Notes under the pieces: generated by a model
Databases searched by the model: none
The model's input: the letters and a program-made list of their open reading frames with translations, nothing else
Told to the model about the DNA's origin: nothing
DNA from: a virus
Lineage: Duplodnaviria; Heunggongvirae; Uroviricota; Caudoviricetes
Length of the DNA: 39,777 nucleotides
Direction: 5' to 3' (one strand)
Virus record (IMG/VR): IMGVR_UViG_2537562191_000049
Program-made: the position numbers and the translations under genes
Shown here: positions 31,689 to 32,922 of the stretch, piece by piece
Layout: each line of letters opens with the position of its first letter
Position numbering within the stretch: position 1 is the stretch's first letter

Positions 31689-32405
31689 ATGGAAAATAAA
31701 AAATCACTGACGACAGAACAGCTCGAAGACGCTAAGCGGCTTAAGGCTTTGTATGAGTCAAAAAAGAAAGAATTGGGAATAACCCAATACTCAATCGCTG
31801 ATGAACTGGGTATCACCCAAGGAGCGGTAGGGCATTATCTTAATGGCAGAAACGCGCTAAACGTTGAGGTCGCATCTGGTTTTGCACGTTTGTTGCAAGT
31901 CTCAATTGCTGATTTTAGCCAGTCAATTGCTGCCAAGGTTGCAGAACAGGCAGAAAGCCTTAAGAGCGATGCCAACGTAAGGTATGCAGGGGAATACAGA
32001 GCAGGAAAGAGGTATCCGGTGTTAAGCAGTATCCAGGCTGGCTCGTGGTGTGAAGCATGCGAACCATACACCATTAAAGACATAGATGTTTGGCTTGAGT
32101 CTGACGCGCATATTCAAGGTAATGCGTTCTGGCTTAAAGTGGAAGGTGATTCAATGACGGCACCGGTTGGGTTAAGCATTCCAGAGGGAACATTCGTTCT
32201 TTTCGATACCGGAAGGGAGGCGATCAACGGCAGCTTGGTCATAGCAAAACTTTCTGACTCTAACGAAGCAACATTCAAGAAGCTGATAATCGACGGCGGA
32301 AATAAATACCTCAAGGGACTTAATCCTGCATGGCCTCTCGTGCCAATCAATGGAAACTGCAAGATTATAGGCGTTGCAATTGAGACAAAACTAAGGCTGG
32401 TTTGA
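31689..32405 (+). CDS. cI: CI repressor (HTH plus intact S24 peptidase domain)
   Basis: 238 aa; N-terminus LTTEQLEDAKRLKALYESKKKELGITQ...; C-terminal AFWLKVEGDSMTAP... and ATFKKLI with Ser and Lys intact, matching lambda CI. Confidence 0.9.
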   Translation: MENKKSLTTEQLEDAKRLKALYESKKKELGITQYSIADELGITQGAVGHYLNGRNALNVEVASGFARLLQVSIADFSQSIAAKVAEQAESLKSDANVRYAGEYRAGKRYPVLSSIQAGSWCEACEPYTIKDIDVWLESDAHIQGNAFWLKVEGDSMTAPVGLSIPEGTFVLFDTGREAINGSLVIAKLSDSNEATFKKLIIDGGNKYLKGLNPAWPLVPINGNCKIIGVAIETKLRLV

Positions 32406-32422
32406 TCACGCAAGGGGCGATT

Positions 32423-32791
32423 ATGGTTGGAACCGCTATAGCAAGCTTTTTTGGGATGTTGGCAATCTCGACAATTTACGGCTTAGCGCATGCTTTTATT
32501 GCGAAATCTCTATCAGAAAAAATAAGCCAGGCTTGGGCGCATAGATCAGCTCGTTTCATGATTCTGGTGATCATAGCAATACAAGGGATATCTGCATTTA
32601 TCCTCTATGGATCAAGCTTATACCTATTGTATCAAGGCGCGACATTTACGCCTTACACCAGTGATTACGGAACTCTATACGATGGTAGTGAAGACATCAC
32701 TGTGGCTTGGATCGTCTTTGGTTTATCTATGGCCGTGTCTGTTGTAGCAGACATCATTAAGGTAATTCTCGTCTTAACCTTCGCTGACTAA
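32423..32791 (+). CDS. Integral membrane protein in the rex position, directly downstream of cI
   Basis: Three to four hydrophobic segments; ATG at 32423 with SD aagggg (the track's TTG at 32402 overlaps the cI stop); followed by OL/pL as for lambda rexAB. Confidence 0.55.
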   Translation: MVGTAIASFFGMLAISTIYGLAHAFIAKSLSEKISQAWAHRSARFMILVIIAIQGISAFILYGSSLYLLYQGATFTPYTSDYGTLYDGSEDITVAWIVFGLSMAVSVVADIIKVILVLTFAD

Positions 32792-32922
32792 CCTATAATC
32801 CCGGCAGCAATAGCTATCGGGATCCACTTCACATATCCCGCATAAAAAGCACTGAACAAGCAGACACCGAAAAAATAAATATCCTTTGTATTCATTTGCT
32901 TATCATTATTTCACCAAAAATA

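Follow-up and report, generated by a model that had tools for sequence, protein, structure and literature searches.

What does the small gene directly after cI do, in the slot where lambda carries rexA and rexB, and is the short hydrophobic reading frame that runs into its end from the opposite strand a second gene? Both frames are present in the window (the whole 39,777-nucleotide stretch of DNA analysed here) as an earlier note had described them, with AAGGGG 6 nt before the ATG at 32423 and an overlap of 4 nt at the stop codon of the larger frame (Table 1). The note had read the larger frame as a single small polytopic membrane protein without a RexA-like partner, which holds. No second gene precedes OL/PL and N. 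We found the membrane-protein gene to be genuine and under purifying selection, and the 35-codon frame to be a chance reading frame and not a gene. The interpretation that we put first, tentatively and with a little less than even confidence, is that the locus is an HK620-type immunity module in which the membrane protein, HkaS, serves as a lysogenic-conversion protein that would exclude heteroimmune phages at the inner membrane, the 35-codon frame having no function.

Table 1. Features of the immunity region, in window coordinates.
Feature	Position	Strand	Basis
cII	31001-31366	minus	
cro	31388-31588	minus	
OR operators	about 31613-31678		
cI repressor, 238 aa, HTH_3 and Peptidase_S24	31689-32405	plus	Pfam
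hkaS Shine-Dalgarno, AAGGGG	32411-32416	plus	sequence; 6 nt 5' of ATG
hkaS, 122 aa, three predicted TM helices, PHROG 6534	32423-32791	plus	PHROG match, HK620 annotation
Stem-loop, 7 nt 3' of hkaS stop	32798-32823	plus	centroid fold
35-codon ORF, chance frame	32788-32895	minus	frameshifts, no RBS or promoter
A6 run, variable length	32870-32875		comparison of close relatives
Operator-like dyad AAATATCCTTTGTATTC	32877-32893		matrix scan and conservation
OL2	32922-32938	plus	HK620 annotation transferred; matrix scan agrees
OL1	32947-32963	plus	HK620 annotation transferred; matrix scan agrees
PL	-35 TTTACA at 32936, -10 TATTCT ending 32964	plus	HK620 annotation and promoter scan
nutL	3' of PL	plus	
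N antiterminator, first PL-operon gene, end of immunity module	33159-33431	plus	Pfam N_peptide

By megablast, the window carries an immunity region of the HK620 type, oriented in reverse of the lambda map. DNA identity over the immunity segment was 98.9% to HK620 and HK630, 99.7% to mEpX2 and 100% to phi296/phi367. The prophage that hosts it has CUS-3/phiv205-1-like virion genes and a gene O carrying an IS element. The membrane-protein gene is hkaS of coliphage HK620 (AF335538, AAK28867), which has been listed as 'unknown' since 2001 and is not new: HK620 has the same gene in the same order (cro, cI, hkaS, OL/PL, N), with no difference of substance. The window gene is 98-100% identical to annotated hkaS genes, and its product differs from the HK620 protein by G20V. 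An already catalogued gene and a chance reading frame are, as they stand, no surprise for a lambdoid-phage specialist. The segment was found in 146 of 5,426 complete E. coli genomes (roughly 2.7%), and hkaS travels with one immunity type through phages whose virions are P22-like (HK620 and the window prophage), lambda-like (HK630), HK97-like (HK140) and of the Shiga-toxin phage type (phi296). An Rfam scan of 31300-33500 gave no match.

The start of hkaS lies 17 nt after the end of cI (32405), and its TAA stop is at 32789-32791. The protein has 122 aa when read from ATG 32423 and 129 aa from the mechanical TTG start at 32402; an in-frame TAA immediately 5' of the ATG in one diverged locus (L011) fixes the 122-aa start, and AAGGA or AAGGG is found at a fixed distance 5' of the ATG in all four diverged lineages. 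The match to the PHROG 6534 profile extends over the whole protein (E 2.4e-79, residues 1-122 on positions 1-122). All 10 relatives that were fetched carry an intact gene, as do all 80 of the IMG/VR viral contigs. Diverged HkaS proteins keep 122 aa without indels at identities of 83% (Hafnia), 61% (Salmonella), 55% and 52%, and 46 columns are invariant, a fully conserved C-terminal octapeptide among them. When the window was compared with the Hafnia-type locus, hkaS had a dN/dS of 0.14 and cI one of 0.03, synonymous sites being saturated in deeper pairs; among close copies, hkaS had 22 nonsynonymous and 19 synonymous substitutions.

The HK620 gene order was also found in every recovered diverged locus, with a gap of 17-20 nt after cI. 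Identity across these loci was 85-95% for cI, 76-92% for cro, 50-83% for hkaS and only 16-35% for N. This gradient assigns hkaS to the immunity module, with a rate of evolution several times that of the repressor, and the low identity of N where cI is so well conserved places a mosaic boundary between hkaS and N. The replication genes, like N, have been exchanged among the diverged hkaS loci.

Accessory genes of lambdoid prophages in this position have been studied in several phages. The hex gene of phage 434 is co-transcribed with cI from PRM (Shkilnyj et al., PMC3564112), and lambda rexAB, 434 hex and 933W stk (a tyrosine kinase), all on the PRM message, exclude other phages (PMC3564112). 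Position alone would put hkaS in this group, as it lies directly after cI, on the same strand and before OL, and a scan of the gap between cI and hkaS found no promoter-like or terminator-like site. We infer that cI and hkaS are the first and second cistrons of a presumed PRM operon and would be transcribed together, from PRM once lysogeny is in place and from PRE while it is being established. The earlier note had held that genes in this slot are expressed in lysogens and are usually concerned with defence or exclusion; this is documented for rexAB, hex and stk (PMC3564112), but the slot is empty in several relatives. In a survey taken over cI relatives, it held rexAB in lambda, hex in 434 and Sf101 and two unrelated ORFs in Enterobacter phage BHUENT3, and it was empty in OS31, phage 21/DE3, mEp213 and SEN22. 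Because the slot is variable and in several relatives empty, position is weak evidence for a defence role. By analogy, it argues for HkaS as a lysogen-expressed accessory protein, with exclusion as the leading guess and position not a proof of it. A paper on the sRNA svsR (PMC12803456) was set aside, as its subject is the 3' end of cI of another prophage.

Homology searches offered little beyond the family itself. Searches with HkaS against Pfam, NCBIfam and PADLOC matched no family, and among the PHROGs its sole family was 6534, which is classed as function-unknown. Two matches, both to the HkaS family itself, came from a profile search against 1.84 billion cluster representatives, and a word-indexed search of 5.8 billion proteins returned 12 clusters, all again the family itself. 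A scan of GTDB species-representative genomes found no relative, a sequence search of the PDB found no match, and fold searches of BFVD and the PDB returned only generic helical bundles, which are non-specific. As far as sequence comparison goes, HkaS is a tiny orphan family (PHROG 6534). That none of these searches related HkaS to a protein of defence or exclusion counts against the exclusion reading. A literature search on HkaS, mEpX2 and the HK620 immunity region gave no paper on HkaS and no experiment, transcript data or functional work.

The hydropathy profile of HkaS has three hydrophobic segments (residues 1-27, 43-70 and 91-122). AlphaFold, given six family members, so that the topology is predicted from only six sequences, produced a confident model (pLDDT 88.8) in which helices span 2-29, 31-38, 41-74 and 89-121, and residues 78-86 form a short beta hairpin. 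Three to four transmembrane segments had been proposed from the sequence; hydropathy and the model bear out three, and not four. Loop 1 (28-44) contains four K/R and one acidic residue, and loop 2 (71-93) contains none and four, respectively, which by the positive-inside rule gives an N-out, C-in orientation. HkaS is thus predicted to be an inner-membrane protein with three transmembrane helices, N-out/C-in. In such a layout, the N-terminus and the acidic aromatic loop 71-93 would be periplasmic, and on the cytoplasmic side would lie loop 28-44, which is basic and amphipathic, together with the invariant C-terminal K-x-ILVLTFAD. Mean pairwise identity was highest in K-x-ILVLTFAD (91%) and the basic loop (71%) and lowest in the acidic loop and the third helix (50%). 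A variable periplasmic loop set against conserved cytoplasmic parts is consistent with an outward-facing, fast-evolving interface.

Class I holins have three TM helices in N-out/C-in orientation and a charged cytoplasmic C-terminal tail, and their genes belong to the lysis cassette. We considered HkaS as a class I holin and rejected it: the predicted topology fits, but HkaS ends in the hydrophobic ILVLTFAD and matches no holin family, and the gene belongs to the immunity region.

If HkaS excludes phages, the more likely mode would be interference with genome entry, as by T4 Imm, P22 SieA and HK97 gp15, and the less likely one a RexB-like ion leak set off by a trigger. Entry block is favoured by HkaS being single, small and almost wholly membrane-embedded, by the missing sensor partner and by the fast-evolving outward loop. 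There is precedent for small proteins of the inner membrane blocking DNA entry (PMC11436027), and HkaS resembles T4 Imm, P22 SieA and HK97 gp15 in that these too are short, almost wholly membrane-embedded phage proteins acting as single genes (PMC11436027). It differs from them in location, since their genes lie elsewhere in the genome, and searches of PHROG, Pfam and PADLOC gave no homology of HkaS to families of this kind. It is also possible, although we hold this with some doubt, that HkaS is an unrecognised single-gene exclusion factor unrelated to RexB, Imm, SieA and gp15, which would be produced from the repressor transcript and would either block entry or abort heteroimmune infection. 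With an exclusion role, HkaS would be a new orphan family among the repressor-linked, lysogen-expressed defences, beside rexAB, hex and stk, and would act in roughly 2.7% of complete E. coli genomes, lysogens of Stx phages included. On these grounds hkaS is a reasonable, inexpensive and well-defined candidate for a phage-exclusion test.

A role on behalf of the prophage or the host, either in tuning stability or induction as 434 Hex does or in changing some property of the lysogen's membrane or of its transport, we consider unlikely. A precedent is 434 itself, which has a single accessory gene in the same slot next to a cI that is 52% identical. Besides its heterologous exclusion phenotype, Hex has a non-defence role in repressor stability, lowering spontaneous induction about 30-fold in a RecA-dependent manner (PMC3564112). 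The co-inheritance of hkaS with one cI family past synonymous-site saturation would suit such a role, as would the predicted cytoplasmic location of the best-conserved parts of HkaS; the 17-nt spacing, however, explains the linkage to cI just as well. The two proteins are also of different make: Hex has 134 aa, with an N-terminal signal peptide, a soluble body and no other membrane helices, whereas HkaS is almost entirely membrane-embedded. They are unrelated in sequence (hhalign probability 0.08%).

Like HkaS, lambda RexB (PF15968) is an inner-membrane protein, small and polytopic, whose gene stands after cI and before OL on the cI strand. This slot is one reason to consider HkaS a small oligomeric channel for abortive infection, RexB-like but unrelated to RexB, that would be closed in the lysogen and opened by an infection signal, with depolarisation as the result. 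Predicted helices of HkaS contain invariant polar residues (Q54 in TM2; S106, D110 and K113 in TM3), small residues in TM1 (G3, A5, S8, G11, S16) could serve helix packing, and Rex-type depolarisation is an established mechanism (PMC11436027). Against a channel of this kind stand the lack of an encoded sensor partner, there being only about 17 residues of cytoplasmic loop available for sensing, and the lack of RexB homology. RexB, with 144 aa, has four transmembrane helices, whereas HkaS has 122 aa and three predicted helices, and RexB works with RexA, for which HkaS has no counterpart: neither in the window nor in the diverged loci does any ORF lie on either side of hkaS, in the space up to cI or in that up to OL (in the window, a gap of about 100 nt separates hkaS from the OL operators). 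The earlier note had proposed a check for remote RexB homology, and none appeared: the Pfam RexB model, which scores lambda RexB itself at 305 bits, had no match to HkaS at E <= 1, and hhalign gave a probability of 0.7%. We regard the channel as rather improbable, and exclusion by entry block as the better account of the same membrane protein.

That hkaS might instead be a decaying or spurious ORF without function, as the lack of a known domain and the frameshifts in phage HF4s and a small number of E. coli copies or clusters (P0006, P0007 and P0009) could suggest, appears very improbable and is already contradicted by the sequence conservation described above, namely the intact gene in every viral contig, the length held constant over about 50% sequence divergence, the low dN/dS and the invariant columns. 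The frameshifted copies do indicate that hkaS is dispensable.

The 35-codon frame on the minus strand is a different case. It starts with ATG, encodes 35 residues with a GRAVY of 1.13 and exists as a CDS, HF4s_0039, in one phage record, where it was entered by automatic gene calling. These features, together with indels that fall in a homopolymer, as is usual for phase variation, could point to a type I toxin-like hydrophobic peptide convergent with hkaS and perhaps switched by slippage of the A-run. Indels in that run shift the frame after codon 9, and the frame was disrupted in about 25-32% of close relatives. Among ten aligned relatives the run was A6, A7 or A8, and the ORF was out of frame in five; 19 of 60 spread-sampled E. 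coli copies had a length change of +1 or +2. In the pooled copies, 25 of 90 were out of frame, with one further copy carrying a double indel. Variants of the run among close relatives were A5, A6, A7, A8 and AAACAAA, the last in two Stx2c phages. The GAAAAAATAA run within hkaS (32517-32522), by comparison, was A6 in 90 of 90 copies, whereas the identical downstream motif varies in length.

Diverged relatives retain hkaS without the small frame. In the Salmonella-type and L015 loci its place is taken by unrelated sequence, and in the Hafnia-type locus both start and frame differ and a C-run is polymorphic. Haplotypes in which the frame is open differ by 11 nonsynonymous and 3 synonymous changes, a ratio that is about neutral. 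We considered and rejected phase variation through the A-run, as the ORF is missing in diverged lineages and its in-frame variants are neutral. Upstream of the start (GGTGAAATAATGATAAGCAA-ATG) there is no usable Shine-Dalgarno sequence within 30 nt, and a minus-strand scan of 31500-33300 found no promoter-like site. A tblastn search of 50,697 phage records found the peptide at this locus only, and PGAP/RefSeq leaves the frame uncalled in all listed genomes. Its hydrophobicity is no more than chance would give, since 3 of the 89 ATG ORFs of 30-45 aa in the window are as hydrophobic (GRAVY >= 1.1). The toxic peptide suggested by the earlier note therefore finds no footing in a frame that is broken in between a quarter and a third of the near-identical copies, that diverged relatives lack and that changes neutrally, and a toxin here is scarcely credible. 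This has a practical side, in that HF4s_0039 already stands as a CDS in GenBank.

What is conserved beneath the small frame is better described by other elements than by codons: the frame is the reverse complement of an operator-like dyad, a slippery A-run and the hairpin after hkaS, with no function of its own. The hairpin at 32798-32823 is, in reverse complement, codons 24-33 of the frame. The Salmonella-type, Hafnia-type and L015 lineages each have a hairpin in the corresponding position, different in sequence and none with a U tract. Their recurrence at one place in each diverged lineage suggests a 3'-end element of the cI-hkaS transcript, so that the window hairpin, itself lacking a U tract, is a candidate 3'-end or terminator element.

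The dyad AAATATCCTTTGTATTC, whose reverse complement forms codons 1-7 of the frame, is the sixth-best match in the 39.8-kb window to an operator matrix built from five sites, OR1-3 and OL1-2, and ranks right after those five. It had zero substitutions among 90 copies. Its half-sites (AAATAY ... RTATTC), the CAT that follows and the distance to OL2 are kept in all four diverged lineages, in which the flanks change. By this conservation and the matrix match, the dyad at 32877-32893 is probably the true distal OL operator, although the assignment is putative. The site recorded as OL3 in HK620 (equivalent to 32900-32916) is unlike the consensus, and the hairpin recorded there as 'tIMM' is the palindrome at 32877-32893; the conserved sequence under the 35-codon frame thus points to a distal operator that is apparently misplaced in the HK620 record.

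The virion genes (window 1-25000) are P22-like and lie nearest to those of phiv205-1, CUS-3 and Kapi1, with ~96% identity across 50-66% of the query. Since HK620 is not among the closest relatives of these genes, the HK620 immunity cassette sits here in a different Lederbergvirus backbone. Replication gene O is broken at about codon 22 by an IS3-family element (Table), and comparison with HK620 O places residues 1-22 and 21-299 on the two sides of the insertion. The prophage is probably replication-defective, with an intact immunity region.

Table. Coordinates of features in the window and in Enterobacter phage BHUENT3 (locus L026).
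Feature	Location	Strand	Description
65-aa TTG ORF	window 32886-33083	plus	covers OL, PL and nutL
IS629/IS1203-like IS3-family element	window 29455-30761	minus	splits replication gene O
orfA of the element	window 30382-30708	minus	
orfB of the element	window 29495-30385	minus	
Gene O fragments flanking the element	window 30762-30827 and 28618-29454	minus	
BHUENT3 slot ORF 1	within L026 2170-2886		127 aa, CxxC pairs
BHUENT3 slot ORF 2	within L026 2170-2886		109 aa, coiled-coil region and C-terminal transmembrane helix

The site recorded as OL3 in the HK620 GenBank record (equivalent to window 32900-32916, TTATCATTATTTCACCA) departs from the operator consensus. At window 32877-32893, 45 bp centre-to-centre from OL2, there is a conserved dyad that resembles the consensus and overlaps the hairpin named tIMM in the same record. 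HK630 and phi296 both list the 65-aa TTG ORF as encoding a hypothetical protein; the sites that it covers are known regulatory ones, and it is probably a spurious gene call.

In phage HF4s (MT833387), the A6 run (window 32517 equivalent) inside hkaS, the membrane-protein gene following cI, is shorter by 1 nt, and because of this deletion the annotation retains just a 78-aa hkaS remnant. Either the gene is inactivated in that isolate or the deletion is a homopolymer sequencing error. N-terminal frameshifts also occur in a few HkaS protein clusters derived from E. coli (P0006, P0007 and P0009). Directly 3' of the hkaS stop codon, Hafnia-type loci (L016-L019) carry a C10/C11 homopolymer, a second length-variable run within the same intergenic gap after hkaS.

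The slot between cI and OL is occupied in BHUENT3, after a related cI, by two unrelated ORFs, a pair that could be further cargo of the same hotspot.
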